In this document: positions 1 to 32,381 of the stretch, in pieces
Numbering within the stretch: position 1 is the stretch's first letter
Layout of the letters: every line of letters begins with the position of its first letter
NCBI GenBank assembly: GCA_008632985.1
Contig: QPGO01000006.1
Coordinates: 865,138-897,518 of the forward strand
DNA length: 32,381 nt
Source: Psammoneis japonica
Taxonomy: Eukaryota
Direction of reading: 5' to 3'
Made by a program: the position numbers and the translations under genes
Notes under the pieces: generated by a model
Seen by the model: only the letters and a program-made list of their open reading frames with translations
The model's database searches: none
Told to the model about the DNA's origin: nothing

Positions 1-1456
1 TGTGGTTGTGGAAATTGTGGTGGTTCCCAGAATTCTCATGGAGGTGCATCCCGCCATTGTTTGAATCAAAATGGCACCCAAGCCAACAATGATGCGCAAG
101 GCCATGGAAATCTGGCTGGATCAGCTCCTCCTGGTGGCTGGCAAATGGAGTTGCACCATTTTGATCAAGGAGGGCCTCATGAGATGCAAGGTGGAAATGG
201 GTGCAATCAAGGCAGTCGTTTTCCACAAAGCCAACAAAGTTGGTGCAACTGATGTGGGACGGAAGTGCCCAAGTCAGAGTGTGTCACTCAATCTTTTCAT
301 GTTTTGTGTGATTGTGAAAATTGTTTGTGTTTTAATGTGGATGAAAGTGTTGGAAACCTGATGGAGTCCTGTGCTGTGAATGACAAGAATTGGGCGGCAC
401 TTTGGAGTGTGCCATGCCAACCCCAAAAACTGCAACTCCCAAACCAATGAATGTGGTGCCTGCAACGTTGATGGCTTTGCGCACAATTCAGAATCAAGAG
501 AGTGAGCAACAAGTGTTGTGAGCACTTTTAGATTCTGGAGGCACTGCTGACACCCTTGTGCATTCTCAAGTTTCACCCAAGGGAGCCAATCCAATGGCAA
601 ATGACAAGGGATGAATGAGTTTCGAGACTGCAGCTGGATGGCATGAATCATCCCGGCATGTTGTCATGAAGGATCTGGTGCTTCCTGATTTTGATAAATC
701 CAAACAAGTGGATGGTGTTGTTGCGCAAGTTTTGATTCTTCCTGCAAGTGCAACATGACATTGGGTCAAGATTTTCTTGCCAAAGCTGGGACAGTGCTTG
801 ATTTCTGATTTGACATTACAAAGTGGTCAGATGCATCAATCCCAATGAAGCAGTCTAATCATTGGAACAAGGTGCAGAGCTGGTTGGAGACACTTGATGA
901 CCACGAGGAAAGTGATGAGTCTGAAGGAGATTTGCAGGTTGAAAGTTGCATGTTGGATGCCAAGCATGAAAAGGTTTCAACAGGAAAAGCAGCTCAAGCT
1001 CAAACGCATTTGACCATGGAACAATGTAGCCAATTGCAGGCCGTGCTTGAAAAGCATGAAACTCTTTTTGATGGCACACTCGGCAAGTGTCCGCATGAGA
1101 CAGTCCATTTGGAAGTTGATCCCAATGCTGTTCCCTTTCATTCTAAAGCCCGTGAAGTGTCAAAGAATGATGAGGAAGTTTTTAAAAGGGAGTTGAAGCC
1201 TCTCTGAGACATTGGAGTTTAAGAACAAGTGGATCCAATGGAGTGGGCAGCTGGAACGTTTGTCACTCCCAAGAAGGATGGACGAGTGCAACGGGTGTCC
1301 AATTTTTGAGGACTTAACAAGGTCCTTCGACACAAGGTCTGCCCCTTGCCTGTTGTTCAAGATGTGATTCATTGATGCTCAGGGTGCAAATTTCTAACCA
1401 AGCTGGACCCCACAATGTTTCACTGCCATGTTGAACTTGACGAGGAATCCAAGGAC
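1..1456 (+). mobile_element. Degenerate Ty3/Gypsy LTR retrotransposon fragment (gag tail, aspartic protease, N-terminal reverse transcriptase)
   Basis: Protease motif ALLDSGG at 522-542, followed by ...KCNMTLGQDFL (canonical YDMILGRDFL). Then ETLFDGTLGKCPHETVHLE and RT-like EWAAGTFVTPKKDGRV...F*GLNK...KVCPLP...GCKFLTKLD...ELDEESKD at ~1241-1456, where homology stops abruptly. Protease directly before RT is the Gypsy order. Contains stops and frameshifts. Confidence 0.9.
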
Positions 1457-1849
1457 CAAGGAAGAAATGAGAGCCACCCAGCAGCAAGAGAGCTGCTTCC
1501 AGCTCAGTTTGGTTTTCCCCATTTGGGGATTCCCCAAAATGGCCAGGGCAAGAGGGGGGTTACATTCCCCTTCTGGGGAATTCCCGGGAAATGAGGGCAA
1601 TTTTGAGGGAAAGAATGTCTGAAAGAGGTCAGGGGAGGGGAACAAAAAACGAGTGGAATCCGGCAATTCTGAATTGATTTGGCTCAGGCGCAAGTGCTTT
1701 TTTTATCTTCTGCGGTCGATCGAACTTACACAGCAGCTCTAGAGTGGCGGAGCAGAGAACTTCATTCACACGGCACTCCAGGCTGTTGCCATTGCACTGT
1801 AGATTAATCTACTTCGCTGCTGCCACTGCTGTTGATGCCACTGCTGTTT

Positions 1850-2400
1850 TCCATCTCCTCCACATTGACAGAGGCTGGCTTCAAGGTTCTTTGTTGGATC
1901 ATCTCAACCAAGCATTCATTGATCATCCATGGCTCCAAGGCTGCATCATCAATGCCATCATAATTCGGAGGCATTCCAAGGACACACCACCCACCACTTC
2001 AGCCCTTCTGGTGGTCAAGGTTGCTGCTCAACATGGTGCAAGTAACGTCATCGTCCACCACACAAAACGTCAAGCCCTCGCACTTCTGCAGCAGCTTGGC
2101 CTCCGCAAATGGATCATTCTTCTTGAGTGGTGGCTTCTCCCAGTCTGCCAGTCAGTGCCTGAACTTCTGTTTTGGGAGATCTCTCATGCTCTGCACGTCC
2201 ACTCCAAATCTCTCAAGACCCAGGTCAAACTTGGCGTCATCATCACCCCGCACACTCCCTTTGCTGGAGTCCAATTTCATCTTCTTGATTCTCTCATGCC
2301 TCACTTCCTGAAGCTGTGCCATGGCACAGATGATGGTCTGCTTCTCCATCTTGTCTCCACTGATGCAAATGTGTCATCCCAGATGCTCATAATTTCTGAG
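1850..2400 (-). mobile_element. Degenerate fragment resembling the C-terminal part of a diatom hAT-like transposase
   Basis: Minus strand reads SGDKMEKQTII...DDDAKFDLGLERFGVDV...LADWEKPPLKKNDPFAEAKLLQKCEGLTF...GGWCVLG. The resemblance is from memory; no catalytic motif is visible. TpA- and CpG-depleted like the other repeats. Confidence 0.4.
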
Positions 2401-2974
2401 AGCTCCTCTTCCTCTGCGACAGCATTGACATGGCTGTCGACACTCATGCAAGCATCATCCTGCTGCTCTTTGTCACTCATGTGCCAACATGTGTTTTTTG
2501 AGAGAAAGTGAACCCCTGCAATGAGAACAAAGATGATGGTGTGCAAAACTGAACAAAAAGATGTGGGTGGGCACATGAAGCATGAACGAAAAGATGCCAG
2601 ATGCACCTCTCAAGAAAAAAACACACCGGATGCGTGGCATCAAAAAGAAAGATGTGTCATCAACGTGACAGCAAACATGTGCTGCATCAACATGGTGCGG
2701 CAACAAAAGAAGGCATTGCAGCTGCAGAGAAGCTGCAGCAGATGTCATTGTGTTGAATGAATGGTGCTCCAAACTCTGCTGAGCACTGCAAGTGCAACAT
2801 CTTTGGGCAATGGGGAAGCACGGGGAATTGCCAATGTGTAAATTTTTGTTTGTGCACTCAGCACACATGTGACGAAGGGCAATTTGTGGCAATTCCCATG
2901 GAGTTCACCCTTTCCACAGCAAAACAGGGTAAAAGGTGGTGATCCCAGGGAACTTTGGGCAAAAACATGGTGAA

Positions 2975-3510
2975 ACCAAACTGAGCATGTTGCCCAGCAA
3001 TTTGAGAGCTGTTGGTTGTCTTGCCATCTTTGCCCAAACCAATGCATCCATGACAATGGTGGTGAATTTGTTGCAGAAGACTTTCAGTTGTTGCTGCAAC
3101 AGGCTGGAGTGGATGATGCACCCGCCACTTCACGGAATGCACAGTCCGATGCAGCATGCGAACACATGCATCAAACAGCCAGCAATGTCTTGTGCACTTT
3201 GCTTCATGTTCATCCTCCACAGAATGTTGGACAAGCAGGACAACTGGTGGACAATGCCCTGCCTGGCTGCAGCTGTGCATGCTGTGCAATGTCTCCTGGA
3301 GCTGTGGCATTCCATCGTGATGTGATTTTGGATCTTCCTGTGCCAGCAGATCTTGCTGCTGTTCAAGAACATCAACAAGCTCTTGTCAACGCAAATCTGC
3401 ACAGAGTGAATGCCAAATGCTGATCCTGAGACTTTCAAGTGGGCAGACAAGTTCCATTGAAGACCATTGATCCCACCAAGCTTGCACCAAGAGCTCTCAT
3501 GGTCCACACC
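2975..3510 (+). mobile_element. Degenerate Gypsy-type integrase (rve core and C-terminal region)
   Basis: HVAQQFESCWLSCHLCPNQCIHDNGGEF...TSRNAQSDAACEHMHQT...SPGAVAFHRDVILDLP...DFQVG matches the Gypsy integrase pattern WLSRYPRP..CIHDNGGEF...NPQSNAICERMHQT, with CpG- and TpA-type substitutions. Confidence 0.88.
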
Positions 3511-3519
3511 CCATTGTGC

Positions 3520-5037
3520 AAGTGCGTGCCAACGCACCTCACGCAGTCAAGCGCATCAACATTCGGTGCATTGCACCACATTGAGTTTGAGGTTGAGGGT
3601 TTTCTTCCCTCCACTTGGGTTTCCCTTTCTCTTCTCATTGGAGTTTGAATTGAAATTTAACAGTTTGGAGCCCCTCATGATTCTCCTGCTCCAAATCATG
3701 GAAGGGAAGAGTGCTGGTGCAGTGTCGCGCACCCTGTTTTTCTGACATGTGGCATTGATGATTGCATTGGATGTCAAAGGGAGCCGTTGCAACAGGCTTT
3801 GCCAATTGGCTCAGCTGATTGCGACCTGGTTCCCTTGGTCTTCTCTCACAACTTTGTTGTCACCAACGTCTTTGTCTTGTTTGACCTTGCAGGACATGAG
3901 CGAAATGTCCGAGAGACATTGTTTGGACATTGGTGCAAATGTCACAGCAGCAACACGTCACAGTGCGGCCCGTGCTTTTCTCACAACACCCCAAAATTTG
4001 TCCCATCGTGGTTTCTTGTGTTGAAGTGAAACAGTGCAAAACACAGCATGAGACACCAACAAGCAACGCCCCACGTCACAGTTTTCTCAAAAAATGTTGC
4101 TCATCACTTGTGGTGATGTGGCCGGGACAACTCAACATCACGCAGAAAAGACTGCCCCTCATGTTTAGAAGAGCAACATTCTTGTGTCTCATCAGACATT
4201 GTCTTGCTAAAAGAGTGAACAACATTTCTGCAGCATCATGTCAAAATGGACACAACTTCATTTTTTTTAAGAAAAAACCCTTTTTTTGCAGTGTGGACGC
4301 ATGTCCACTTCTCAACACATGGCGGAAGATGTGTCCACAAAAGAAATAAAAAACAGCGACATCAACAAAACAATGTGGACATCAGTTGGAATGCACCCTG
4401 TGCCTCTGGGTTTTGATGCAATGAACCCAATGGACGCAACCCTGCATCACCTGCCCACAAATGTCATTTCTGCAAAAACAATGTCTGGCCACACTGAGTG
4501 CAGGAGTGCATCAGTTTTGAGGCAGAAAATGCAATGGAGATCTTTGGCGCAGGTGCCAAAAGCACTTGTTGTGCATGACGGATGAAGAGTGTGGCGATGC
4601 CACTTCAAAGTTCAACGCTGATCAAGAGAAAAGAAATGGATGACATTTCATGTCACTTGCTCCATGCTCACTTTGACTTCAGCAAAAGCAGTCACAAAAT
4701 TGGAGCCCTCAGCCCACTGTGCTGCCACCTTCCATTCCCACCTTTGTCACCTCGGCTCCCTTCACCTTCCCAACCGAAATGATTTGCAGCTCTGGAAGAC
4801 AATGACAACTGCTTGGGTCACGCCAATGAATTTAGACTGCCAGCCATGTCTCTGTCCATTTTGATGAGCTTCTGCTTTCTGGGCAAGATGTTTCCGAGAC
4901 ACAAGTTTTCCCAGAGTCAAGTCAGCTTCTCCTGCTGCTGAAACCAGCTGTTGACCAAAAGTGGTTGTCCAGGCCTCCGCAGTCTTCTTTTCTTTCTGCG
5001 AAGCGCGCCACCAGCCATAAAGACCTACGTGGGTTAA
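3520..5037. mobile_element. Unclassified degenerate repeat DNA, possibly ending in a piggyBac-type terminus (GGG-TTAA)
   Basis: Same TpA/CpG-depleted composition as the recognised transposon fragments, with no recognisable protein. Composition returns to normal at ~5015-5040, where CCTACGTGGG|TTAA occurs. Confidence 0.4.
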
Positions 5038-5171: not shown

Positions 5172-6320
5172 CGTCGATGCGAACCCATGTTCCTCATTTT
5201 TTTGGTTCGCGGTTCATGGTAGACTCTACACGCTCACAAAAAAGTTATTCAGAATACGTTGAACATGCATTGTTGATGAACACCTTTTCGTCAGCAGAAA
5301 AAGCAAAGAAGAGAATACGCAAGCTCAAGAAAACAAAGTGAGTATCATGTCGTGCGCTGCCTTCAAAACAACTCTGTTGCCTTTCTTCAATGATCCTTCT
5401 TGCGCATCTCTTGTTTCTCCTTCTTGAACAGAAAAACAAAAGAAGGAAGAAGAGGTAGGTCCACAGTCGATGCGAACCCATCCCTCAACTTTTTTGTTCG
5501 ACCATACACCGCTCACTGTAACTTTTTTATAATACCTGAACCACTTTCAGAGTGGTGAGCATCGCATCGTTTGCTCTTCGGCTCGTCGCATCGCTCGCTT
5601 GTCATCGGAAACAGCCATATCTTGCTTCCTCTTCTCCTTTCGATGAAATTGCTCTCACTCACCCTATTCATGATGTTGCCATGCTGAACCACAGATTTAA
5701 AAGCAGAAAAGGCATCAAAGGAGAGAAGACACAAGGGCAAGAAAGCAAAGTGAGTATCATGTCGTGCGCTGCCTACAGCAATTCTGTTGCCTTTCTTCAA
5801 TCATCCTCCTTGCACATCTCTCGTTTCTCCTTCTTGAACAGAAAAAAACAAAAGAAAGAAGAAGAGGTAGGACCACAAATTGATGCGAACCCATCCCTCA
5901 ACTTTTTTCGTTCGCCCATACACCGATCACCGTAACTTTTTCATAATACCTGAACCACTTTCAGAGTGGTGCATCGCATCGTTTGCTCTTCGGCTTTTCG
6001 TATCGCTCCATTGTCATCGGAGACAGCCACTACGTACATAGAGAGGACTCAGATTTATAACTTGCATCATCGTTTCCTCTTTCGATGAAACTCCTCTCAC
6101 CCTATCCATGTTGTTACCGTGCTGAACTGCAGATTGAAAAGCAGCAAAGAAAGCAAAGGAGAGAAGACGCAAGCGCAAGAAAAAAAAGTAAGTATCATGG
6201 CATGGGATGCAATCATCAATGAGGAATCCACTCTGTCATAATGCTTTTTATTATCGCTCGGCATCTCTCGTTTTTCCCTCCTGAACCTGAACAGAAAAAA
6301 GAAAAGAAGAAGTGGTAGGT
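5172..6320 (+). repeat. Diverged tandem repeat, ~412-438 bp unit, about 2.5-3 copies, containing splice-site-flanked purine-rich segments
   Basis: GT(G/A)AGTATCATG recurs at 5338, 5750 and 6188; GATGCGAACCCAT at ~5176, ~5469 and ~5882; ATAATACCTGAACCACTTTCAGAGTGGTG occurs twice. Confidence 0.92.
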
Positions 6321-13347: not shown

Positions 13348-13559
13348 TACTTCTAGTAAATACTAAACAACTCAAATAGTGTGATCGTACGAACTAGTGA
13401 AAGGATGGTTACTCTTGGTTGTAAACAGCTGTTGTGGGTGAAACAAAGTTTTGTTCTCTAGAGATTATGACTGAAAGAATGATCGAAATTTCAACGATTT
13501 CGCGGGATTCGAGATTTTAATTCGAGGTGATGACGTCATGATGTCTGGACAAATGACTT

Positions 13560-16500
13560 GTGATGTCACAATGACTCCCTCTCAACCAAGAGGCACCAGC
13601 CCATTAGACTCTTCCGACAAATTTCAAATTTCACCTGGACGAGAGCCTTGGTAAATTGGTCAGCGAGCTGGGATTCAGTTCCAGTCAGTTGAATGAGACT
13701 CTTCTACTTTCGTGCAAAACCAATGACAGGGCACAGCAACATGCTCAGTCCGCAGAGCACAATCTTGGGAAGCCGCGCATCGCGCTTGAGACAGGCACTT
13801 GACCACACGAAGGCAGCTGTTGTGGTGGTTCTGGTTCAGAAGATGGACATCAAATTGGATGATGCCCTTGTGATGAAACTGGACAACAGCCCCTGGCACA
13901 GGTCCGAGTGCACCATCATGCAATGACAGTGCTTCCCATCGGCATGAACAGACACCCTGACCCTTGTCAAGATTGGGTGGCACAAAGTGGGTGCAAGTTG
14001 TGTGTGTCCAACACTCATGGCTGGCCCACCCAAGCTTGCAAAGTGCAGCAACTCTCTTCCAATGTGATTGTTTGGGCTCCTCGTGCAGACCATGCCAACA
14101 TCCTTGAGGTCCTCTCCATTGTTTGGGAACAGACCACGGGACAGTCAGGGGCTGTCAAGTGCTGACAGGAGGGTTTGGCACTGCGTTGTTGGGAAGTTCC
14201 AGGCCATGTGCAACTCAATCATTTGTGGTGGCATCAGTTGCAGGAATGCTTTTTGACAACACTTCTGGTGACGCAGCAGCAGTGGGAGGTGAAGACAATG
14301 CTGCAACATTGGAGGGGAAACCCGCGCTTGACATGGTGGGACAATCGCCAAGGAGGAGGGGGGGAACTGGCACAAGCAGAGCCTGAAATTTGGTCAACAG
14401 AAACAATGCCACTGACATCAATGCCATCACAAATTCCTCAGGAACATGCACCATGATGATCGACCATGCCAAAAATGGGGTGTCCTTCAAAAGCTGCACC
14501 CCCACGCAGAGGCAAGGGCCATGGAATGAACCCTGGCAGCACACTCTCTGGCTCACAAGCCCAAAAAGCAGGAACCAGTGGCTGCACCTCCAAAGTGAGG
14601 AGGGAGCTGGGGATGCAAACTGACAAAATCAGTGTTGGGAGCGCCTGCTGACATCGCTGCAGTCAGAGTGGGGGGCGTGGGATGAACCCTGGCAGCAACA
14701 TCGGAAAAGCCGTCAAACAGAACAGGGCATCTGGCTGCACCCCTGACGATGACAGGGGGCATGGGATGAACCCTGGCAGCACAGTGGACATCTCTGGTGC
14801 CACCCAAGCAAGGCGGCATTGCATGAATCTGAGTGGATGGAGATGGTTCTTGAGCCGGTGACTTCACTTTCCCACCCTTGTCTGCACTGTGACAATGCTT
14901 CTTTGATGGACAAGATTGGCAGAAACCCCTCCTTGCCTTGAGCAGTCTGATTGGGAGGAATGGAAACCCATGGCACCAGCAAGGATGTGTTGTTCACATG
15001 GCAAAATGAAGCTGGACAGCAAAAAATTGTGAACGAAAAATTGTGAACAAAAATTTCATGGTGACAAACCAAGTGAGCACAAATGAAAATTTCAGAGCAA
15101 ACAAACTTGCATGTTGAACAAGACATTGGCACAACAAAAGGCTGAAGGCAACAGCTTTTGCATTCATTGGAAAATGTCACAGATCAAGAAACAAATGAAA
15201 TTGGAGGTCAGGGATTCAAAACGAGAATGGAGCCTTGCTTCTTTTCTTCTTTCATGCAGTCAAGAACTTCTTGTTCCAGGTGAGTTTTTACACCACATTC
15301 ATCTGTGTTGGGTTCAGTGCAAATGCAAGTCACTTCTTGTTCTCTGCGGGTTCTTGTTGGTTGTCAGGTGGAGCAGTTTTTGTTCACACAATTTGGCAAC
15401 TGGTCATTTTGCACCTCCAAAGTTGTCTGTTCTGCCATTTCTGTCTCTGTGTAAATTGCTGCACACCCACACTGGAGTCTTCAAGCTTTTCTTGAAGATG
15501 TCCAGTGCTGTCCACACATCATTGCAGTTCTTGATGCCTGGCACATCAAGATCAATGGCGGCTCTAAATTTCTTTAGAGGTGGCTGGCCAGTTTGGGTGC
15601 CAGCAGATCTGCTCATTGATTGCATTGATGCTGTTGCTGATGGTTGTTTGGCATTTGGAATGAAAGGATTCTTTCATCTGACATCGTATGACAACTGAAG
15701 GAACATGTGCTCCAGTGCCAAAAAACACTCTCAATTGACAACAAGATGTGACTCAAGGATCGCGCGCTCCAGTGCCGAGTCACACTCTGAATCAACAATG
15801 AGATGAACGTCAGTTCACAAAGTTGTGAGCAAGAAAGCTTTTGCTTGCCTGCACTGCCAGCTGGTCACTGACTGTGGTTGCTGTGTTTTCACAATTGGTG
15901 GCACACCATGCTCCTGCTTGCTGCCCTGAAAAAAGCTTGAGAAAAAATGGCAAACTGCCAAGATTAAATTCACAGTGCTGTCAAATTCAGCCAGCTGACA
16001 CAAACAATAAACTTGATGTGATGCAATGTAGAATGGACATCAATGCAGAAAATCCCAGACCAATGCAAGCAATGGTCTGATGTGCACCCAGCCTTTTGTG
16101 CACATGTGACAGGAAGTCGAAACCAGCAATGTTTGAAAAATTGTGCTTTTGAGAATTTTCACACTTGTGCCTTGTCATTGTTGCTTTCTTCTCATTTTTC
16201 CCAATTCTGAACCCTGTGCTCCAGTGCATTGAGCCAACTTGCAGCAAAAGTGCAGGTGAGGTTGTTCATTTGCCACCATGTGCTTGAAAGCAGAGCATCT
16301 CCCATCTTTTTCTTTGGACTTCTCTTTCACTCACAACTCTGCCCCCTTTTTTCAAATGCTGCGGAGGATGCCCAGGCTGTCATGATCAAGCTCACACTTC
16401 CTTCACCCCATCCTCAATGCCAGCAGTCACAATGCTGTTCTGTTCCTCCCCCCAAATTCCTCGGACATGGAAAAGTGGCACGTTTTTGTTGCAGTTTGTG

Positions 16501-16690
16501 AGATGGCAACAAATGGAGGGACCCCACTTGAAGAGCTTCTTGGACGTGTTGTGTCTGCATCAGACAAAGTCCCTGGGTACAATGCTGATTTGGTCAATGG
16601 AGAAGAGGTCGACATCAACTGGCAAGGAAATCCGCAGAACCAGTCAGTTGAAAAATCAGGGGGGAAAGCGTTGGCTTCAATTCAATTCAA
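13560..16690. mobile_element. Block of heavily degenerate, probably nested transposon debris including a Copia RNase H remnant
   Basis: Strong TpA and CpG depletion. Minus strand 13701-13755 reads RTEHVAVPCHWFCTKVE (Copia RNase H, RTKHIAVPYHWFR). The rest is not assignable. Confidence 0.7.
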
Positions 16691-16958: not shown

Positions 16959-17829
16959 CTAAATGTACCCCATTTGAGCAAGAGCGTAATCACGCCCCTG
17001 GAGAGAAAGAAGAATCCGCGAGAATCCAACGCCCACGAGACCTATGCCAAGAGTAAAGCCTGGAACCCATTCTGCCGCAATGGGAAGAAACTTGACGGCG
17101 GATGCACTCACCAAAACACTCATGACTCCACTCAGCAAGGTTGCCCAAAAACCGTCCATCTCTCGGTTCTTGGAAGCCAGTACAATTCTGTACAACCCTT
17201 CGGAAAAGACAGAACCCGCAATTGCAAGTGTTGCAAACAGCTTGCTATCCCAGGGGTCAATCTGTACAATTGTTCCTAGAGCAATCTGCGCGATTCCAAG
17301 AAGAAACGATTGGGCCTTGTAGCCCTCTTCAACGTAAAAGGTAGACAAGAGGTTGAAGAATCCGACAGCATAAAGAGTGCAAATCACCGAAATGACAGAG
17401 AGATCTGTGGCGAAAAAGGGGAGGCTAAGGGCTGTAGAGCCGGCAGCAACACTGAAAGCGCCGTCCAGAAGGATAAAGCCCCAATTCTGAGAGATCGAAG
17501 TCTTGACAGCTTCAAGATCAACGACGAGTGCGCTTTCAGAGACAGCAACATCGTCGTTTTCGAATTCACCTTCTTCAGTCGAAAAGACAGGCTTTGACCT
17601 AAAGAGCGGCTAACAATAGCAACCAAGGTTGAAATGTAAGAAGAGCGATTTTGATTTGAATCAAATATATAGCGTAATCTCGAGCATGTCGACAAAAACT
17701 GGAAATCCTCCTTACCGAATTCATGGCAGGCGATTTTACAGCGTTCTTTACGCATCTCGCTGGGTGAATGCTAAAGGCATTGGTGAAACCGAGAACGGTG
17801 GCGATGATGAGAAATATCTTGATCGTCAT
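16959..17829 (-). CDS. Plastid-targeted HdeD/DUF308-family membrane protein (~254 aa); exons 17829-17716 and 17609-16959
   Basis: Signal peptide MTIKIFLIIATVLGFTNA-FS plus a basic transit-like segment. A phase-0 GTAAGG...TTAG intron (106 nt) leads into QNWGFILLDG...LPFFAT...DPW...EGLYRIVLA...GFWATLLSG...LPIAAEWVPGFTLGIGLVGVG, a six-TM pattern typical of HdeD-family proteins. Confidence 0.8.
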
Positions 17830-18239
17830 GGTGATATGAAGAAGTGAGAATAAGATTGGATCTTCCAGAGGTGACACTGTATCCTGCAGGTGTCGGATTC
17901 TTCAACAACTGCTGAAGCGAGGATTTGCCATTTTTTGGTTTGCTGGTCTTTCGAGTGGCTGTAGATATTATTATGAAATACTCATTGTTGCATGTTAAAA
18001 TAATTCTGTAATGATATCCTAATAAACTTATGGTGGATAAAATACAATGGCTATCCAGCAGTTCCTCACATCCAGCCACGGTTACATAATGAGTAGGATT
18101 TGTACAGTAGAATTCGTTGAAACATACTGTACGACGTCAGCAAGAACATGTGTCTGGTATGCACACATCTGTTACACTTGGCAGTAGATCGAGATATGAG
18201 GCGTCATAGTCGTACAAACGTCGTATAGTCGTAGTGGGT

Positions 18240-21200
18240 AGAACCGACTTCAACTACGAGATACATCATCGCACATTGAACTTCCACAAGATGTCGTTCC
18301 CGCTGACGTTCATAACCTCACCGGTGTGATGCCGCTGCTGTTAGCAGCACATCCCAATGTAGAACGCACGAGCGAACGATGACGTGTCAAGTGAATCGAG
18401 ACGAGCGATCTACAACGTGTCGGGTCCGTCAATCATGCACGGAAGTTTGCTTCAACCCTCATTTTTCATGAGATCTGAACTTTTGCAAAGGAAGACTCTC
18501 CAGCCATCTCAGTCACAAAGCATCGCCAGTTGCAGCTGAGACAACATCTGCGGGGACCAGAATGCACTGGTCGCAGAGTCTGCAGAGACCGGGAAACACC
18601 GGTTGCAGATTTGTCATTTCGCATTCATTGTCATTCATTGCACTCTTGACGTGCTGAAGATTTGTTGCACACACTCATCTGCTGAGTCCAGAAAACACTG
18701 GAAGTGGACCCTGCAGTGACTGGGGACACCAGTTGCAGGTCGGATTGTCTGCCATCTGTTGATCACATTGACTTTACTCAGATTGTTCTCATTGCAAGTC
18801 TCATGGGTCATCGTGTTATCTGGTGTGCACCTGTTGCTGCGTTGTTGGCTCAACTTGTCTTTGCGCAGTGTGAGCCTGCGGTTGCAAGCTGTCTCATGGA
18901 TGATGGCAACACCAGGCACCAAGACAACACAAACAGACGTTTTGAGAAGCTTTGTTGCAGGAATGGAAACGAGTGCATCCCTTGGGTTTGTTTGGTGTGT
19001 GACAGATTGTCAAAACCGTCTCAGACTGCTCGACTTTCTGTCAATGGATTGAATGAAGCCAGACACCTGTCAACTCCATCTGAATGGAACCAAGCATCGG
19101 AAGACCTGCACGATTGTTGTCGCATCGATGACGACCACATTCCACGGGATTGCTGATGGATTTCCGACCTGTTGCTTTCGCCAAGAGCTCGACATGTTGT
19201 TCCGAACGACAACAGAAGGTCTGAAGGATTCACTTGTTGCAGGCCTTGTAAAAGAAGTCTCTGCACTGCTTCTGTGCCTCTGTGCGCAACAGCAAACAAC
19301 AATCGCTGTTTTGGAACACCACCACCTGAATTGTCGTGTCTTGCCGAAGTGGAGCTGGCTTTGTTGACACCTGTGAAAACACATGGCTGCTGCTTCAGTT
19401 TTGTCGGTGGCAAACAGAAGAAACTGCAAGGCAGTCTTTCCTGTTGCAAGATAAACACAAAGAGCATCGCCCGCACCATCATGCACTTTGACGTGTTGAA
19501 CCTTCATCAAAATGTGGTTGTGTTGGTGTCCGGCAAAATGACACCAGAGCAAAGGCGAATGGCCAGACAAAAGAACAAAATCAGGACTCACTGTGCAATG
19601 AGAGCACTAGAATGGCTTGTCCATCACCACGAGAATTGGATGAATCAAGACATCGATCTAGAGGAAGTGCGAAGTAATTTACAGAATCCAGTTTTAGTGG
19701 ACAATGGCAGTTTGGACGAAAGCGAAAATGCAAACATTGAAACCACGGAGTCCCACAGTGTTTGTTTCCCCGATGGCACCGTTTCTTCAACAACTGGTGG
19801 ACAACGTAATTTAGACAGCTTCAAAGACTTGGTGCACGATGCAGCTGCAAGCGGTTTTGACATTGAATTCAAAGCTGATCTTTTGAAAGAATCAGTCAGT
19901 GACTTTGAGGACAACAACCTGGCAAATGCTTGCTTGCTGCAATTTCCTTGTGGGCATGGCGGCATCAATGAAACAAGAATGAAAGAAGACGGGAGTCTCG
20001 CCGACTGCACAAATCCAGCACATTGCGCAGATCACTTGGCCCGCATTTCTCAGCCCCATTTCCACAAGCAACTCTTTGTTCTGACCCTGTGCAATCTGAC
20101 TGTGAAGCAACGAATGGTGCATGGTGCTGGATGGAAAGTAAGAGACAAAAATCAAGCCAGACAATTCTCAAATGAACTGACACAAGACGACGTCGACCGT
20201 GCCACATGTGACAGACAGACTGGTGAACGCAGGAATTGTGCATTGGGACATCGTTTCTTAAGTGCAGTGGATGTGGTGTCGGCATCTGTTCCACGTGCAA
20301 ATGAAGCAGCAAAAAAAATGAGAAGAAATGCTGAAACCTGCCAACACCACTTTGGACAACCTGGAGTGTTTTTAACGACAAGCCCCGATGATGCCAATTC
20401 CTTTTTAGCTCAAATTCACACGGACATGCTCATCAACGAAGGCAGAGATGTGACAGAAATGTCGGATGAAGAATTGGCCGAAAAGGCTAAGGCAAGAAAC
20501 GAGCTTCGTGTGGAGCACCCGGGTGTCACGGCTTTTGCATTCGAAATGTTGTTGGAAATTGTCATAGAAGAAGCAATGGGATGGGACTTAAAAAGGAATT
20601 CACCCAGAGAAGATTTTGAATTCTACATGGGGAGACCCTCCGCTTTCACAGCTGCAATGGAAGAACAAGGTAGACTCTCGGCACACGGTCACATTCAGGC
20701 ATGGTTTGAAGACACAAACACAGCAAGAGACAATCTGCATTCTGACAACAGAGATTTTAGGCGTGATGGCAAAAGAACACTGTCCAAACTGACCAGTCGG
20801 ATCTGCACAACTGGGTTGACATGTGGCGAGGATTACACTCGACTGTCCATCACAGANNNNNNNNNNNNNNNNNNNNNNNNNNNNNNNNNNNNNNNNNNNN
20901 NNNNNNNNNNNNNNNNNNNNNNNNNNNNNNNNNNNNNNNNNNNNNNNNNNNNNNNNNNNNNNNNNNNNNNNNNNNNNNNNNNNNNNNNNNNNNNNNNNNN
21001 NNNNNNNNNNNNNNNNNNNNNNNNNNNNNNNNNNNNNNNNNNNNNNNNNNNNNTCCCTGGTCTGACTGCTTGTCCAGACAACACAACAAAGAGACTTAAA
21101 GCTGTGTGCATTCAGCGTCAACAATCCGATGAGAATGGGACAATCGAACCACACATTCCAGATGCTGCATGCAGCCATCACATGCATGCTAACATCGCTT

Positions 21201-22092
21201 GTTTTTCTAAGCTGAAACAATTTCCAAAAAATGGAAAAAAATTCCGAGAATGAAATGACCACTGGCAGAAGCGCGCGTGAGCGTAAATTGCACGAGATGC
21301 AAAATGCCGATTGCCATTTCAATCTCCCCGCCGCACACAGTAAATGCAATGTAATCAGGAAAGCTCACAACGCAAAAATTAAGTGGTTCTCTTGGGATGG
21401 CTCATTCCGTCATAGATGCGTCAAAGAAATTGTCCCCAAGAGGAGAAAATACGATGCTTTCCAGAATGTGTCGTGCCCTGCAATCAGCAGATCTGAGCTG
21501 ACATGCAACACAAACATCGCAGTTCTAATGCCAGGCATCCCAGGTGGATCATGTAGAACTCAAGCATGGCAACAAAAGCATCGATCCACCCACCTTTTCG
21601 CTCAAGCCTAAGTCTTCCACTTTCAAAGCCTGTTTAAAGGACCCAACCCAACAGATGACAGCTGAGGAAAAAGAGAAACATGTGCTCGGACTGAAAGCAA
21701 CCCAATTGCCATTCACAATGAACAACGCAACTGCAGGACACAAGCTTCAAGGAAGCGGTGTCGACAATGTGTTTGTACACAGCTGGAGCTGTGCACAAAA
21801 CTGGGCATGTGTCATGCTCTCCAGGGTTGAGACCAGAAATGGTCTGCATCTTCGGCAACCGCTGAAGAGAGATTTAAGTCTATACAGACTGCCGGACGGG
21901 CACAACGCCCTGCTCCGGTTGATGGAAGGAAGAAGTGTCACATGCTTCACCAACGAACAGCATGATGACATTTTGCAGTCCAATTGACAAATGGAACATT
22001 TTGATGCTGCATGTGGGAATTATTTCTGCCTTTTGGAAAATGTTCCAGGCTTTATACGCGGGCTTGCAAGCGTGCCCGGCAACAACCGATAG
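18240..22092 (+). mobile_element. Helitron (Rep-helicase), internally deleted and mutated
   Basis: One frame from ~18241 to the gap, broken only by TGA stops. Motifs FGTPPPELSCLAEVELALL, LQFPCGHGG, HFGQPGVFLTTSPDD, HUH motif EEQGRLSAHGHIQAW, later CNTN. PIF1 motifs V/VI (QLP...NATAGHKLQG...CVMLSRV) at ~21700-21830. GC-rich hairpin at 22059-22078. The 5' boundary is uncertain. Confidence 0.9.
20857..21053. other. Assembly gap (197 N)
   Basis: Run of n characters. Confidence 1.
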
Positions 22093-22510
22093 AAAACAAA
22101 GGGTCTAATCTAATAAATCGATGTTAGTACATTATTACAATGATAGACACACTCAGCAACCAGTGATACACAACGTTAGGACAGTTCTCTTATCATCTAC
22201 CATAGAACGATCACACCAGAATTATCAAAAAGGGGAAACCCACGTCTCTTCTTATAATATATCCATACACGAATACAAGAATTAAATCGCCATTTTTTGA
22301 TATAATATTAAAACATTAATATAGAATTACGTCGCACATTAATTAATTGCGAACCCATCATTTAAGCGTGCGAATTTTTTAAAAAATGATTGGTGGCAAG
22401 TAAAGATCAAAGCTCTAAAATTTGATGCTCGCGCGCATGGCAATCCAAACCAGCCCGGGTTCCACACCTCCTCACTTCGTGTCCAGAGTTCCTACCATAA
22501 AGGAGGAACC

Positions 22511-25487: not shown

Positions 25488-26113
25488 ATGATGTATGCTT
25501 CTTGTCTAATGTATGCGTCGCTTGCAATGCTAAGTGCTCCAGTATCTGGCTTTGTTGCACCGAAATTGGGTGATCCAGCGCAGACTGTAAGTGTTAGCAA
25601 CTTTGATGTACAGTATATTCGATTCCCAGAATTGAGAATGTTTCTTACACAAATTCTGATATATGCCTTTTTTCAGAGACACTCTCCTCGTTTTAGCACT
25701 GTCGAAGAAATCGACATGGGCTCCAAATTTTTCCAACTTCAGGAAATGGAAGACAAGGAGTGCGCCACGACGGAACTCTTTTTACACGAGGACGGTCAGG
25801 TGGATTTGTTTGATACCGACGGCCCGGTTCCCACCGCCACGGCTGGATCGTGGCAACACAACACGGGAAACGGTGAATTCATTATGCGAGTCAAACGAGA
25901 ATTTGAAGCCGGTAAGAACGAACGGGATGCCACCGATATGGGCCAATTCAAGTTTATTGTGGACCGGACCTTTACCGGATCCTTTCCAAAGTAGGCGGTG
26001 CGATTGCCGTGGAAGGTGTGATGCATGATATTGATGAGCTTTTGGGAGATCGTGAAGTTGGGTACTTTGAAATGCTGGATACGACAGAAACCCGATTGGG
26101 ATATGAAATGTAA
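25488..26113 (+). CDS. Plastid-targeted protein of unknown function; intron 25587-25676; apparent 1-nt frameshift at ~25983-25987
   Basis: MMYASCLMYASLAMLSAPVSG-FVAP (ASAFAP-like), phase-0 GTAAGT...TTTCAG intron, then FFQLQEMEDKECATTELFL...TDGP...GSW. The frame stops at 25994, but the -1 frame continues KVGGAIAVEGVMHDIDELLGDREVGYFEMLDTT to TAA 26113. Confidence 0.75.
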
Positions 26114-26372: not shown

Positions 26373-26943
26373 GCAACGCTCCATCACGATACATGGATGA
26401 CTGCCGCTGCCCACAAACGGAACTCCAAAGCAGGATGAGGACGATTGGTTTGCTCGATAAACCATTCAGATTTCAGAATTTGAGGTTGCTCCAAGAACAG
26501 GTTTCAATGGGTACAACAGTTTCGGCCATTGGATTATCGTTGGTGGTGCTGCGCTACCGAATGTCAGGTAAGCAGTAGTTAATTTTTCTCTTGGCTAATA
26601 TACCGTATGTAACCAATCCAATCACCTTTGTGTTAGGGAAAAGAGGAAGGCTCTAGTGTAGACAAACGCAATAATATGGTCAGAAGCAACGCTCCATTAC
26701 GGTGCATGAACGACTGCCGCTACCCACAAACAAAACACCAAAGTAGGACAATCGGTTAGCTCACTCATCCATTCAAATATTATTTCAGGATTTAAGATTG
26801 CTCAAAGAACAAGTTTTCAACGGATTATCGTTGGCGGTGTCGCCTTACCGAACGTACGTCAGGTAAGCAGTAGTTAATTTTACTCTTGTGTTAGGGAAAA
26901 GAGGAAGGCTCTAGTGTAGACAAACGCAATAATATGGTCAGGA
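26373..26943 (+). repeat. Tandem duplication (copies 26373-26685 and 26686-26943)
   Basis: Both copies begin GCAACGCTCCAT and share GACTGCCGCT.CCCACAAAC, GTCAGGTAAGCAGTAGTTAATTT and an identical 56-nt block (26628-26683 = 26886-26941). Confidence 0.93.
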
Positions 26944-26944
26944 G

Positions 26945-27295
26945 TGTTCTTTTTTTAGGAGCATTTGTTTACAAGTGTCATGGATAGGCTGGTGTGAATT
27001 GAGCAGGGCAAAAACATCGGTTACACAGTATCTAGGGCCTACAGTCGTGAACTCCAAGCTCGGTTCTACACTGTCAACACAGTACGAACTCATGCGCGAT
27101 ACGCGCGCGCTACACTTACGCATGCGATTTCCCGCCATCGGTCTTTTTCAACTTTTCTCACAATTACAACATCTAGTGTAACAAGACATTAGCAGCTTTA
27201 CCGACACACCATTATCGTTGGCCCTCTTCGCTAGCGATGCATCTATCACTCGACCTCAGTCGACTTCCCCTGACTCTCAGACGAGAGTTGTCGCA
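26945..27295 (+). repeat. Probable 5' LTR (3' end fixed by the PBS, 5' end uncertain)
   Basis: Ends in CA immediately before the PBS. Several TG candidates for the start (26945, 26976, 26993). The second LTR is outside the window. Confidence 0.55.
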
Positions 27296-27307
27296 GGTTA
27301 TGAGCCC
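27296..27307 (+). promoter_or_regulatory. Primer-binding site complementary to the anticodon arm of initiator tRNA-Met
   Basis: GGTTATGAGCCC is the reverse complement of GGGCTCATAACC; the same internal (half-tRNA) priming site type as Drosophila copia and yeast Ty5. Confidence 0.88.
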
Positions 27308-27409
27308 AAGCATCACGCTTGATCACTCCTGCGCTCATCTCTTTCTCTCCGGTGGACGAGAATTGAGCTCCGTACACTTTTTACGTACAATTCTACGTGA
27401 GTGTTGCAC

Positions 27410-27769
27410 ATGTCCGGAAGGAACTCTGCGACACTTGACGACCTCATTGAACAACTGCAAGCCCTGCAACTTCAAGACGCAGAGCTTGTTCGTCACGTTG
27501 CCGAAGAAAGAGAACGGCAGAATCGCCTCACTGCGCCAACGCGAGCCGGAACCGCTCGCACTTCAACCATGCGAGAACCAACCATCGCGGATTTTCGTGT
27601 GGGTGACCGAGTCATTGTGACTGACGAAATCTGCAACTTTCGACGCTCCACTGCCATCCAAGACCGTCAAGCAACTGTCTTTCGAATTGCAGAACAACGC
27701 GCACATGTCCGCATGGACAACGGCAATTCAACTGACCGTCATCCAAAGAATCTGCGTTTTCTCGAGTGG
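27410..27769 (+). pseudogene. Small accessory ORF upstream of gag (119 aa; coiled coil + SH3/KOW-like motif), original stop probably mutated TAG->TGG
   Basis: LDDLIEQLQALQLQ...FRVGDRVIVT...DRQATVFRI...VRMDNGNSTDRHPKNLRFLE, then TGG at 27767-27769 just before the gag ATG. Confidence 0.65.
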
Positions 27770-27774
27770 TTCGC

Positions 27775-29256
27775 ATGCCAAGCAAAGCAGCGAGCATTCC
27801 GCTCCCTCCTTCTCCGCCAGCCAGCATGTCTGAGGCAACCATTGACGGACGGAAAGTGAAAGTCCGCGCGAAGCCGAAAGCATTGCAAGAAACTCTTGCT
27901 GCCCTCTGCACTGAGGCGCAGAGGAACAGGTTGGATCCTGACAAGCTCAACGACCTCTTTCTGAAGGCGACTTCGAAACAGCAGACAAAATTTGACCTCC
28001 TCAACGTCAACATCAACGATCCTGACAAGCTCGAGGATGCTTGTGACCTCGCGATGTCCATCTCAACCATGCGTTCGAACCATGTTAAGTGTGACATGGA
28101 TGACGTCTTCACCATCATCAACCCGGACAAATTCACGACGCGCGATCTTTACAAGGAATGCTCCACGATCACCGCAGCGGAGGTCGCCGCAAGCAACAAA
28201 TGGCGCGCAACCATGCTCGAGGACCCCGGTGGGACTTGGGCGAGCCAAAACCTTCGTCTCACTCACGACCACTTTGAGCGGAACGCGTCCGTCGCACTGC
28301 AGAAGAAAGTCAACGAGACACACCTCAAACATGACCAGGAAGAGCAGGGCGGACCTCTTTTCTTCGTTCTCATGATGAAACTCCTTCAGAGCAACTCTGA
28401 AGAGGCTGCTCGTCATTTGGTTTCCAACATGACCAACCTCAAGATCACCGACTTCGATGGAGAAGACGTGAGCAAAGTCGTGTCTCTTGTTCGCGGTGGC
28501 TGTTCTCGACTCGCTAATCTCCAGGATCAGAAAGGACAGTCTGTTGTTCCCACTGATTTTCTGGAGAATCTCACCAAAGTCTTCCAAACGTCGAGTGTCC
28601 CCGAGTTCAACTCTCTCTTCGAGCACCTTGCCAAGGACTCCACCTCCAAACTCAAGCAATCAGGCTCGACGACCGCTGCAACGACTGCTGTGGTGGATGA
28701 CATCTTATCTTTCGCCAAAGGCGAGCATCTCGCTCTTGTCTCCTCCGACAAGTGGTCCGGCGTGACTGCCAAGAAACAAGCAACTTCGTTCGTTGCGGGA
28801 GTCGTCACTTGTTTTAACTGTGGCGGCCCTCATCCTTTGTGCGACTGCAAGAAACCGGTCAACGACGCTCGTGTTGGTGCTGACAAGAAGCTCTTCTTCG
28901 ACGCGAAACGAGCCCAGCGCAAGAACAGCTCTTCGGGATCCTCCTCTTCCGGTCCCTCCACTGAGGCCATTCCCAAGAAATGGCAGCCACCGACTGAAGC
29001 CGAAAAGAACAACAACAGTCGCCGCAACATCGATGGCAAGGATCACTGCTGCCATTGCAAAACCAAGCGCTGGCGCCCGGTGACTGAGACGGGGAACGTT
29101 GCTTCCGCTCCTGCCGCTGCACCTTCTCCCACTCCGGCCGCTGCGCCCGCTCCGGCACCGGCTTCCGCTCCTGTCACGGATCGAGACCTCGCCATTGCCA
29201 ACGCCAAGAAGGAGATGGTCGAAACTGTGTCCGGCCTCTTCGCCTCCTTCACCTGA
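27775..29256 (+). pseudogene. gag: Copia gag ORF, open but hypermutated
   Basis: EEQGGPLFF, LKITDFDGEDVSKVVSLVRG, VFQTSSVPEFN, zinc knuckle CFNCGGPHPLCDC. Only 1 Tyr in ~493 aa. Confidence 0.9.
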
Positions 29257-29396
29257 AGCTTCGGGCGCGCCTCCTCTCCTGAGCGTGTGGCCCTCTCTTC
29301 TCACTTGTTCAACCATCCGTCCGATCCTGGAAGGGACATCCAGGCTCATTTTGTCGGTCGGTCACTTTTTGCTCCTATGGTTCACTCTCCAGATTC

Positions 29397-32381
29397 TTGG
29401 AGAGGGAGGGATCGAAGCAGTTTTGTCGATTTTTCAGTTGCTGTTTGTTTTGGCAGGTGGATGTTTGTTCCACTTGCTTCTCTTTTCCAAGAATCCTTCG
29501 CTTTTCATACGACGATCTTCCCGACTTTGTTGTTGTTCCTGCTTTCGAACCGACCTCATTTCGTCGTCCTCCTGATCGAACTCGGATGACTCATCATTCT
29601 CAAGTGCGCCGCTTGGATCGGCGGCCAGTTCGAATCCCACATAGAGACCCCTTGTGGTCCTTCCTTCATCCAACGACTTGGCGCAAACAGCGCCGAACAC
29701 CTGTTCCGGACAGTGCAGCGATTGCCGATCCGGATCTCTCCTGTCGAAAATCCAAGTCGTGGAAACTCTCAAGATCGAGACGTCGATTCAAACCCAGGAA
29801 AACGAGACCACCTAGATTTGCCTACGTTGATCCTCAACAAGAAGCCGCAGAAGCCTGCACTCAAATCAAGCATCGCCTGCTGCATCTGCCTTCTGAGATG
29901 TGCAAATTTCCTCATGGTGCGACTCCAACTGATTTCATTGTTTTACTTGATCCTCTCGGCGACTGCCTCAGGACCAAGCCTCCTCACAACTCCACAATGC
30001 GAACGGAGCCCTCACCTTTTGCACCACCAGATGACCCTGAAGCTTCCGAACTAGAAGAGTTCCACCGCATCAAGCACCGACTGTTGCACCAAACCTGGAT
30101 TGTGTGCGACATGCAGTGCGGTTGTTCGTTAGACGAATTTGTTCAAGGCATTGATCCTTTGGAACAATTCCATTTGATCAAGACACTTGCCTCTTCCGAA
30201 ATGTTACGAGCTTGTGGTCAAGCGCCGACGCTCTCTTGCGTCGCAACCAACTTGTCACGCACGACAACAGCAACCTTTACGAGTGGTTTTGGTGGAGCAG
30301 CCATGTTCTCTCACCAGACCATGACAGGTCCATCTCACGTTGTTGCATCCGAGCCGGATCCACCATGGCTAACCGACGATCCAACGCAGTGTGTCAAGTC
30401 CTTCCGTGATGCAAGAGATCTCGAAGGCCGCCAATGTCAAGCATTGACATCGTGCTCACCTGTCGATGCACCTGTTGTTCTCGACACAGGTGCATCTTCA
30501 TCGCTCACACCTCACTCAAGTGACTTTGCAGGACCGCTGGAACCCGTTGATGCCACTACAATCAACGGATTGTCCTCCAGCACCCAAGCAGTTGGTCAAG
30601 GTTTCGTAGAATGGGGCGCAATCGATTGTTGGAATGCAATCCGGACTGTCCGAATGCGAGCCCACTGTGTTCCTGATGCCTCCATTCGCCTCTTCAGCCC
30701 TCAAGCCTGTTTTCAAGAGAATGGAAACCAAGGTGAATGTCTCGTTCGAGGAAACAAAGCAACCCTCACTCTTCCAAAAGGGGATGTGCTCGAGTTCCTG
30801 TACAACAAAGAAAACAACTTACCTTTTGTGATGATGTCCGAACCAATCTCAGCCGGAGTCACCCAATGCAACTTGGCTCCCGTCAGTGCTGAAGCACGCC
30901 TCACTTCGTTTCTTTCTGTTGCTTCTCAGACCAATCAGAATCTAACACCCGGCCAGAAGGAGCTTCTTTTGCTCCATCAGAAACTTGGTCATGCCGGCTT
31001 CCAGCACATTCAACGCTTGTGTGCAATGCCACGGGACCCTGCCAAATCCCACATTGTCAAGCCTTCAACCCACGCCGTCTCCAGTTGTGCTGCACCTTCA
31101 TGTGCTGCCTGTCAACTCGCAAAGCAGAAACGATGAACACCTGACCGTCGCGGCACCTCCAATCATCCGCCGTTGACTTTGCGACAGGGAGATTTGGCGC
31201 CTGGTCAATGCGTCTCCGTTGATCAGTGTGTCAGCCGTGTCCCTGGCCGTCTTCCGACGTCCAAGGGACGCGAACCCAAGAAAGACAAGCACTGTGGAGG
31301 CACGATTTTTGTTGATCATGCTTCTACCTGCGTCTGTCTGACCCATCAAGTTGGTCTCACCGCAGGTGAAACTGTTCGTGCCAAGTGATCCTTTGAGCAG
31401 CTTAGTGACCAATTTGGGGTCCGCATCCAGTCCTGCCTTGCTGACAACATCCAGTTTGGCACCAAGGCTTTCATGGACAACCTAGAAGAAAACAACCAGA
31501 CTGTTGATTTTTCTGGTGTTGGCGCTCATCATCAGAACGGCGCAGCCGAGCGCTCCATCCAAACAATCACTTCATGGGCACAAGCTGTGCTCCTGCACGC
31601 CATTCTCATGTGGCCTGATGCCGCCAACCTGGAGTTGTGGCCTTTTGCCATGACCCATGCGACCTGCTTGTGGAACCACATCCCAAAGTCTGACACTCGT
31701 GCCGCGCCAGTTGAGATCTTCTCCAAGCAACGCTTTGACACCTGTGCGCATCTACAGCGCTTACAAGCATGGGGTTGCCCTGCATGTGTTCTTGATCCCA
31801 AGTTACAAAACGGGAAGAAACCACCTGAGTGGGACCCCAGGAGTCGCCGCGGCCAACATCTCGGCATCTCCCTGGATCATTCAACTAACATTGGCCTCAT
31901 TTTGAATCTCTCGACGGGCCATGTTAGCCCTCAGCATCACGTGGTCTATGACAACCACTTTGCAACAGCACCCAATGGTGACTCTGGCGGTTTCTTCCAG
32001 GACATTCCCTTCACCGCCGACCTTTGGGAATCCCTCCTCACCGCCGACTCGCTGGCACACAATGCTCCGCCTGAGCCTTCCGACACCGCCGATGACCCTC
32101 GTCGTCGCTTGCCGGCTTTGCACGATGATTGGTTGACACCCGCAGAGCGCCGCCATCACGCTAATCATCGACACGACCGCCGTCAACGTCGTCTTCAAAA
32201 CTCCAAAACAGCCCCTCCCGCTGTCCCTCCTTCAACCTCTTCCATCACAGCTCCAGAGGGAGAGCTTCCTGCATCACCTGCATCATCCGCTGACGATCTA
32301 GAATCTGTGACTTCAGAGGCTCCAGAGGGAGTCGAGATTGATGAGTGCAGCGATGACAGCGACAACGAATTGTCACTTGTC
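29397..32381 (+). pseudogene. pol: Copia pol (protease, GAG-pre-integrase, integrase), two in-frame TGA stops, truncated by the window end
   Basis: VVLDTGASSSLTP (~30475), LLLLHQKLGH...CAACQLAK, VSVDQ...GGTIFVDHAS, ADN, SGVGAHHQNGAAER, LWPFA, WGCPACVLDPKLQNGKK..WDPRSRRG, TGHVSPQHHVVYD. Single frame with TGA at 31134 and 31386 (likely CGA->TGA). Confidence 0.93.

Follow-up and report, generated by a model that had tools for sequence, protein, structure and literature searches.

What has emptied parts of this diatom DNA of the dinucleotide TA, and what distinguishes the few TA sites that are left? The question is raised by a stretch of 32,381 nucleotides from Psammoneis japonica (contig QPGO01000006.1, positions 865,138 to 897,518 of the forward strand), referred to here as the window, which holds four sharply bounded TA-depleted blocks: A (about 1-5025), B (13396-16577), C (18263-21882, plus strand), which is a Helitron copy, and D (27233-32381, plus strand), which is a Copia-type retrotransposon. 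The observed/expected ratio (o/e) of TA is mostly 0-0.2 inside these four blocks (up to 0.4 locally) versus 0.5-0.9 in the rest of the window, the host genes that lie between them having 0.4-0.9, and where TA o/e falls below 0.1 the o/e of TG+CA rises as high as 1.8. An initial annotation, made from hand counts, had pointed out that the TA sites surviving in part of the Helitron lie in TTA or TAA and in TCTA or TAGA, and had ascribed this to a catalysed, strand-symmetric process with a preference of about V-TA-B.

The segment on which that proposal was built, 19172-20856 of the plus strand, is the N-terminal part of the Helitron Rep/helicase frame and has 20 surviving TA. The earlier count for it proved exact: 15 are in TTA/TAA, 5 in TAGA/TCTA and 0 outside these two classes, which will be called protected here, with V-TA-B minus TAGA/TCTA called unprotected. 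The chance of 20 protected sites out of 20 is about 2-3e-6, computed from the 52-53% background fractions given below. Equally exact was the count for 1-1440 (10 of 11 TA in TTA/TAA), while the statement that most other survivors in the retrotransposon pol region are TAGA/TCTA was roughly right; it fits 31389-32381 (6 TTA/TAA and 4 TAGA/TCTA, n=10) but fails for 5 other sites in 29283-31136, which also has 7 TTA/TAA and 4 TAGA/TCTA (n=16). Over all four blocks there are 118 survivors, divided into 82 TTA/TAA, 25 TAGA/TCTA and 11 other, whereas the 644 TA in the rest of the window comprise 270, 63 and 311, respectively. The protected classes therefore account for 107/118 sites in the blocks versus 333/644 (52%) outside (Fisher p=3.2e-17); they hold 27/28 of the survivors in block A, 13/14 in B, 38/40 in C and 29/36 in D, and in 58 non-depleted homologous Helitron loci they make up 9070/17056 TA (53%). 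When TA sites are sorted into the ten strand-collapsed NTAN classes, blocks and window background differ with a chi-square of 70 (p=1.4e-11). The idea would have failed if survivor flanks were simply those that base composition predicts; within the window they depart from the blocks' own composition both with mononucleotide flanks (chi-square, p=2.7e-9) and with first-order Markov flanks (p=6.3e-5). The flank bias is thus confirmed as real and highly non-random.

The bias turns out to be graded rather than all-or-none. With survival defined as the density of TA in the blocks relative to its density in the background, the NTAN classes run from 0 for ATAT through 0.03 for ATAC/GTAT, 0.07 for both ATAG/CTAT and GTAC, 0.12 for ATAA/TTAT, 0.22 for CTAC/GTAG, 0.30 for GTAA/TTAC and 0.32 for CTAG up to 0.46 for TTAA and 0.51 for CTAA/TTAG. 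Expressed per strand, survival is 0.05 for TAT, which is lowest in all blocks, and 0.15 for TAC, versus 0.26 for TAG and 0.32 for TAA, so that T-A-pyrimidine is the real hot spot. There is also an effect of the second position: TAGA survives at 0.51 versus 0.11-0.16 for TAGC, TAGG and TAGT (p=4e-6), TACA at 0.22 versus 0.07-0.17 for the other TACN (p=0.02), and TAAA at 0.43 versus 0.22-0.30 for the other TAAN (p=0.05). The two sides of the site both count, since survival is 0.035 with no protected side (11 sites in the blocks vs 311 in the background), 0.26 with one (73 vs 277) and 0.60 with both (34 vs 56). The most vulnerable context is T-A-Y, which on the other strand reads R-T-A, while TAA and TAGA are refractory; two or more neighbouring bases on either side of the site evidently matter. 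Strand-symmetric, context-dependent loss of about the V-TA-B form is accordingly supported, in the sharper form of a graded T-A-Y rule plus an effect of A at +2; the protected contexts pair as reverse complements, as the initial annotation had remarked, which follows from a rule that operates on either strand alike.

Six of the 11 unprotected survivors are in TACG or CGTA (at 15687, 21450, 27373, 27386, 29508 and 29823), and TACG has a survival of 0.17 versus 0.07-0.09 for TACC and TACT; the process may be impeded by a neighbouring CpG, possibly a methylated one.

That TA has been lost by mutation is seen most directly at tyrosine codons. Homologues were aligned to the window by tblastn, the Helitron frame having 35 strong ones (33-50% identity) and 1 weak one, 36 in all, and the codons examined were those with Tyr in at least half of the homologues. 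The Helitron retains Tyr at 1 of 18 such codons, the others now specifying Cys (8), Phe (4), His (3), Asn (1) and Ser (1), and the Copia element at 2 of 13, with 7 Cys and 4 His. Pooled, the 31 codons include 3 that are kept, 15 that have become TGY (Cys) and 7 that have become CAY (His). Other conserved residues are retained at 623 of 813 positions, versus the 3 of 31 for Tyr (Fisher p=2e-14), and a count based on MAFFT agrees, with 1 Tyr, 6 Cys and 2 His among 13 Tyr columns. Because TAY becomes TGY or CAY, replacement of Tyr by Cys or His is the TA to TG/CA change itself, and the loss of TA is shown to be mutational and not an inherited composition. The survivors, for their part, look ancestral, left behind in refractory contexts: 30 of the 32 that fall within a codon sit in codons for a residue common to at least 20% of the homologues, mostly Leu TTA/CTA, Val GTA and Ile ATA.

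Both strands are affected. TG and CA are balanced, at 520:503 in block A, 325:323 in B and 314:341 in C, with 368:446 in the C-rich block D. The strand that is hit can also be read from the tyrosine codons, as these are always T-A-Y on the coding strand while the target on the other strand is set by the preceding base. Among the lost Tyr codons of the window, the change to His (T hit) is found in 6 of 10 after a purine vs 1 of 12 after a pyrimidine (p=0.02). The choice of strand follows the same flank rule, and this His/Cys test is free of any proxy for ancestral context because it is built on mutated sites and not on survivors.

The loss is also sharply confined. Outside the blocks an unprotected TA occurs once per about 52 bases (311 in 16047 bases), and inside them 11 are observed vs about 313 expected at that density; the longest stretches without one inside the four blocks are 3999, 2292, 3188 and 1990 bases. 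Block A has a sole unprotected TA, at 1027, in 5025 bases, block B likewise has only that at 15687, with windows 13801-15200 containing zero TA of any kind, and block C has none between 18262 and 21450. TA depletion ends at borders that coincide with element ends and is restricted to mobile DNA, in that two of the blocks have been identified as Helitron and Copia and the adjacent host genes are spared. A self-comparison of the window showed no mutual similarity among blocks A-D. TA loss and decay of CpG are separable, because block D has a TA o/e of about 0.1 with a CG o/e of about 1.0; about 90% of its TA is gone with CpG intact, and the TA-loss process is much faster than CpG decay.

Copy number was judged from contigs of the sequencing runs X1-X3, of which X1 may be the window's own source and so not independent. 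By contig depth in a public run that may itself be this source, the blocks are multi-copy, with depths of about 2000 for the Helitron (block C), about 500 for the Copia element (block D) and 82-390 for block B, vs 58 for single-copy genes. Differences between copies, given as window to other, are A>G 238, G>A 292, C>T 310 and T>C 300; transitions dominate, since each transversion class amounts to a far smaller 32-65. Of the approximately 1520 differences 40 were typed, 34 of them inside blocks: 10 form 5 TG/CA doubles, 5 have TG/CA in the window vs TA in the other copy, 11 are of CpG type and 8 are other, which is too few for rates per context. The stretch 15588-16234 is TA-poor despite a near single-copy depth. 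Run X2 is uneven in depth, suggesting that its contigs are transcript-derived though labelled 'DNA?', and its contigs lack the 90 bases of 25587-25676, a host-gene intron bounded by GT..AG that has been spliced out.

The pattern recurs beyond the window. When the Helitron alignment was used to scan metagenome contigs, 72 loci came up, and one of them, L005, a 7.7-kb Helitron with 47% protein identity, has a TA o/e of 0.03 and a CG o/e of 0.30. In L005, 11 of the 13 surviving TA are in TTA/TAA, which gives p=0.026 on only 13 survivors, and 33 of 45 Tyr columns are now Cys (26) or His (7). Lost Tyr has become His in 6 of 12 cases after a purine vs 1 of 21 after a pyrimidine (p=0.005), and the His-versus-flank test for window and L005 combined gives p=8e-5. 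TA-normal controls retain their Tyr, at 33 of 39 columns in L003 and 34 of 44 in L001.

A process much like this one is known from the chlorarachniophyte Bigelowiella natans. As described in the main text of a preprint, two integrated viral regions of that alga acquired 231 de novo mutations, 230 of them A->G or T->C at TpA, TpA->TpG/CpA changes arose de novo in mutation-accumulation lines at about 1000 times the background rate, and the genome has TpA-poor, CpA+TpG-rich clusters enriched in transposon domains such as reverse transcriptase and DDE (10.64898/2026.01.13.699255). The same text proposes adenine deamination, without proof, and names an ADAT2 homologue as a candidate (10.64898/2026.01.13.699255). 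The two cases, as far as the preprint's main text describes its own, share the conversion of TpA to TpG/CpA, its occurrence on both strands, its restriction to foreign or mobile DNA and the TpA-poor, CpA+TpG-rich tracts that result; they differ in that the host here is a diatom, a stramenopile and not a rhizarian, that the targets are Helitron and Copia elements in an almost saturated state, and that a footprint alone is seen here, where in B. natans the events themselves were caught de novo. That main text contains none of the terms flank, context, trinucleotide, tetranucleotide or neighbo-, and the same rule may lie in its supplementary mutation table. A full-text literature search returned no report of such a TpA process in diatoms, and a paper on diatom DNA methyltransferases that mentions repeat-induced point mutation (RIP) does not mention TpA. 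The flank rule thus appears to be new information, the kind of hypermutation itself having been reported already, in 2026, for B. natans.

The reading preferred here, with a probability of roughly 0.65, is directed hypermutation of diatom mobile DNA, T:A to C:G at TpA, most simply by a nuclear defence based on DNA adenine deamination. TpA in the Helitron, the Copia element and the two degraded blocks would be replaced by TG as read on one strand and by CA as read on its complement; inserted DNA would be attacked on both strands, with the process halting at the element borders and running near to saturation at its favoured sites. The A in 5'-T-A-Y-3', which forms the same base pair as the T in 5'-R-T-A-3', would be hit most, TAT more than TAC; a purine after the A would slow the process, A more than G, and an A two bases downstream would add protection, as in TAGA and TAAA. 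The simplest candidate for the agent would be a nuclear enzyme deaminating adenine in 5'-T-A-Y, serving in defence against mobile DNA, as has been proposed for B. natans. The claim that a catalysed process and not drift is at work is favoured because the same change arises de novo at about 1000 times background in another alga; that the agent is an enzyme, as the initial annotation also had it, we infer. That the agent acts on chromosomal DNA, and not on an intermediate of transposition, is favoured by the strand symmetry, by the like effect on a DNA transposon and a retrotransposon, and by the occurrence of the B. natans events in resident single-copy DNA. A bolder extension, which we hold only tentatively and think less probable than not, is that diatoms carry a dedicated nuclear DNA-modifying enzyme recognizing about four bases, R-T-A-Y, a RIP-like eraser of TpA on both strands that, being shared with Rhizaria, would be an ancient defence of the stramenopile-alveolate-rhizarian (SAR) lineage; such an enzyme would be refractory to TAA and TAGA and would have a specificity unrelated to those of ADARs and of fungal ADAT-based editing.

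Several observations weigh against a directed process of this kind or blur its outline. When all TA-poor segments of the metagenome loci are pooled, no bias appears, 64 of 117 TA being protected versus 9904 of 18570 (p=0.78), and in L049, which is much diverged (TA o/e 0.15, CG o/e 0.04), only 24 of 52 survivors are protected; the rule is a property of the window organism and of the carrier of L005, not of every TA-poor Helitron. Ancestral contexts are available by proxy only, from the window background, the homologous loci and the composition models. The survival of 0.26 with one protected side exceeds the approximately 0.15 predicted by independent half-sites; perhaps the two strands are not attacked independently of each other, or else the proxy is inaccurate. 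In the product counts, the surplus of TGY relative to background fits in block C but not in block D, which has a different ancestral composition. Repeated DNA adjoining block C (about 21883-22486, with depth bins of 1156-2235) is not TA-poor, and the 5 TG/CA doubles between copies could have had either CG or TA as their ancestor. Finally, an analysis of sequence such as this one has brought to light no enzyme, gene or modified base.

The stretch 17529-18262, on the other side of block C, is also repeated (depth 429 vs 58) yet normal to high in TA; it and 21883-22486 have TA o/e values of 0.6-1.0 and are either other repeats that escape the process or spared Helitron ends. Among the metagenome loci, TA-poor segments were seen at 151-4250 of L049, 1951-3450 of L029, and 2901-3900 and 6701-7500 of L030; L049 is without the TTA/TAA bias, and L029 and L030 have a CG o/e above 1. 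A one-strand version of the rule was considered for L049 and rejected, as TG (475) and CA (459) are nearly equal there and many survivors follow a purine. TA may be lost in a number of organisms, by processes that differ in specificity.

The identity of the agent leaves room for other accounts, of which the nearest changes only the base that is attacked. A T-directed agent acting on TpA, for example a thymine oxidase of the JBP/TET type, could yield 5-hydroxymethyl- or 5-formyl-uracil, which pairs with G and gives T->C in R-T-A. Oxidised thymine is mutagenic towards T->C, and some protists modify T at TpA. From sequence the two agents are indistinguishable, since T-A-Y on one strand is R-T-A on the other and the base pair is the same. 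We nevertheless consider attack on T unlikely, since no such base or enzyme is in evidence and the only experimental report, in the main text of its preprint, proposes adenine deamination, likewise unproven (10.64898/2026.01.13.699255). Lower again, as something we regard as improbable, stands editing of a transposition intermediate, in which an ADAR- or ADAT-like enzyme acts on RNA that is afterwards reverse transcribed, or Helitron single-stranded DNA is edited. In its favour, the borders of the depletion match element ends, and ADARs and fungal ADAT-dependent editing are reported to favour U before the edited A (PMC4817773; 10.64898/2026.01.13.699255). An intermediate is a single strand, however, yet both strands have been hit about equally, as both the TG:CA balance and the presence of Cys and His at Tyr codons indicate; the Helitron has no RNA genome and is affected like the Copia element; the B. 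natans mutations described in the preprint's main text arise in resident single-copy DNA (10.64898/2026.01.13.699255); and the +1 order found here, T>C>G>A, is the reverse of that given for human ADAR and for Fusarium (PMC4817773). As reported there, human ADAR prefers G>C~A>U at +1 and the ADAT-dependent editing of Fusarium graminearum A~G>U>C, with UAG and UAA best (PMC4817773). The window process resembles both in its A->G outcome and in the strong preference for U or T before the A, and differs from them, as that source describes them, in that their substrate is RNA and that they prefer a purine on the 3' side, their best triplets, UAG and in Fusarium also UAA, being the ones spared here (PMC4817773). 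The neighbours of the target in the window thus fit an ADAR on the 5' side, where T is required, but not on the 3' side, where G protects (TAG 0.26 vs TAT 0.05).

The initial annotation had also suggested a comparison with Pol eta, which at WA motifs wrongly places G opposite T. If silenced chromatin were subject to error-prone repair synthesis by a polymerase with a hotspot of this sort, that would agree with the additional depletion of CpG in blocks A and B, as expected for long-methylated, often repaired DNA. A WA hotspot, however, should mutate A after A as well as after T and so erode AA and TT, and these are not eroded, their o/e being 0.9-1.6 in the depleted kilobase bins, about that of the background; in block D, TA has been lost with CpG intact, and loss at hot sites is nearly total (0.035 survival). 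We rate such repair as a shade less probable even than editing of an intermediate. Least credible of all, and in our judgment very nearly to be dismissed, is the absence of any directed process, the elements having arrived TA-poor through donor composition, codon usage or selection against UpA, with the flank bias due to composition or chance. TpA is indeed under-represented in many genomes, and the background of the window itself has a TA o/e of only 0.5-0.7, but Tyr codons have been converted to Cys and His relative to homologues, the flanks of survivors differ from composition models, four unrelated blocks share the pattern, and the related TA-normal Helitron loci L003 and L001 have kept their Tyr.

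Two other known systems invite comparison with the directed hypermutation favoured here. Like RIP in ascomycete fungi, it makes dinucleotide-directed transitions, ruins mobile DNA, respects element borders and leaves a dinucleotide footprint; RIP, however, converts CpA to TpA and so enriches TpA, the opposite of the loss of TpA and gain of CpA/TpG seen here. Deaminases of the TadA/ADAT2 type have as their natural target A34, which follows U33, and the context of bacterial TadA is U-A-C-G. Its U-A-C portion resembles the T-A-Y hot context of the window, but TAT is hit more than TAC here, TACG survives better than TACC and TACT, and the wild-type enzymes act on RNA loops.

The blocks themselves differ in state of preservation. 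In block C, coding similarity extends over 18920-21975, Pfam matched DUF6570 and Helitron_like_N on 19157-21253, TA o/e is 0.04-0.4 and CpG depletion is intermediate. The copy is internally deleted, matching homologue residues 8-875 and then 1721-1864, with the helicase part missing, and a gap of N lies within it at 20857-21053. At 3 of 29 conserved Arg columns of its frame Arg has become His, for example in FPCGHGG of the window against the consensus FPYGRGG; as such a change is of CpG type, this one Helitron copy (19157-20855) has undergone both kinds of decay. Block D, which runs beyond the window end, has a TA o/e of 0-0.3 and matches to gag_pre-integrs (29283-31136) and SH3_retrovirus (31389-32381). 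Blocks A and B, for which no strand is assigned, are depleted in CpG as well, with CG o/e values of about 0.1-0.55. Block A begins beyond the window start, has a TA o/e of 0-0.3 and is unclassified, Pfam having found no family on 12 of its frames; block B contains a C-terminal Copia remnant on the minus strand at 13575-13752, detected by tblastn. A Pfam search of 20 frames across blocks A-D, 16 of them in A and B, gave nothing credible.

Long open frames occur on both strands of the TA-poor blocks, e.g., at 19021-19503, 19070-19606, 19965-20429 and 20600-21364 (minus strand). These are not genes, because DNA free of TA is without TAA and TAG stops, and annotators should be cautious about spurious long frames in such DNA. 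The genes between the blocks comprise a 1527-codon frame, a DUF285 protein, a DUF308 protein, a zf-MYND protein and IspD; all nearest named relatives of the window IspD, and of the Copia protein, are diatoms, which places the host among the diatoms or close to them and not with Bigelowiella. Local direct repeats with normal TA are present at 5293-5871 vs 5702-6319 (78% identity) and at 26373-26686 vs 26686-26944 (67%).

Directed A:T to G:C hypermutation of mobile DNA has one prior report, the 2026 chlorarachniophyte preprint, and a near-saturated footprint in diatom-like Helitron and Copia elements would extend the process to a second major algal lineage, one that includes transformable species. 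The flank rule allows the process to be told apart from editing of the ADAR or Fusarium type, and predicts which Tyr codons turn to Cys and which to His. It also gives a simple assay for candidate enzymes, in which oligonucleotides with TAT or TAC are set against those with TAA or TAGA, and it provides a detector of affected DNA in other genomes.

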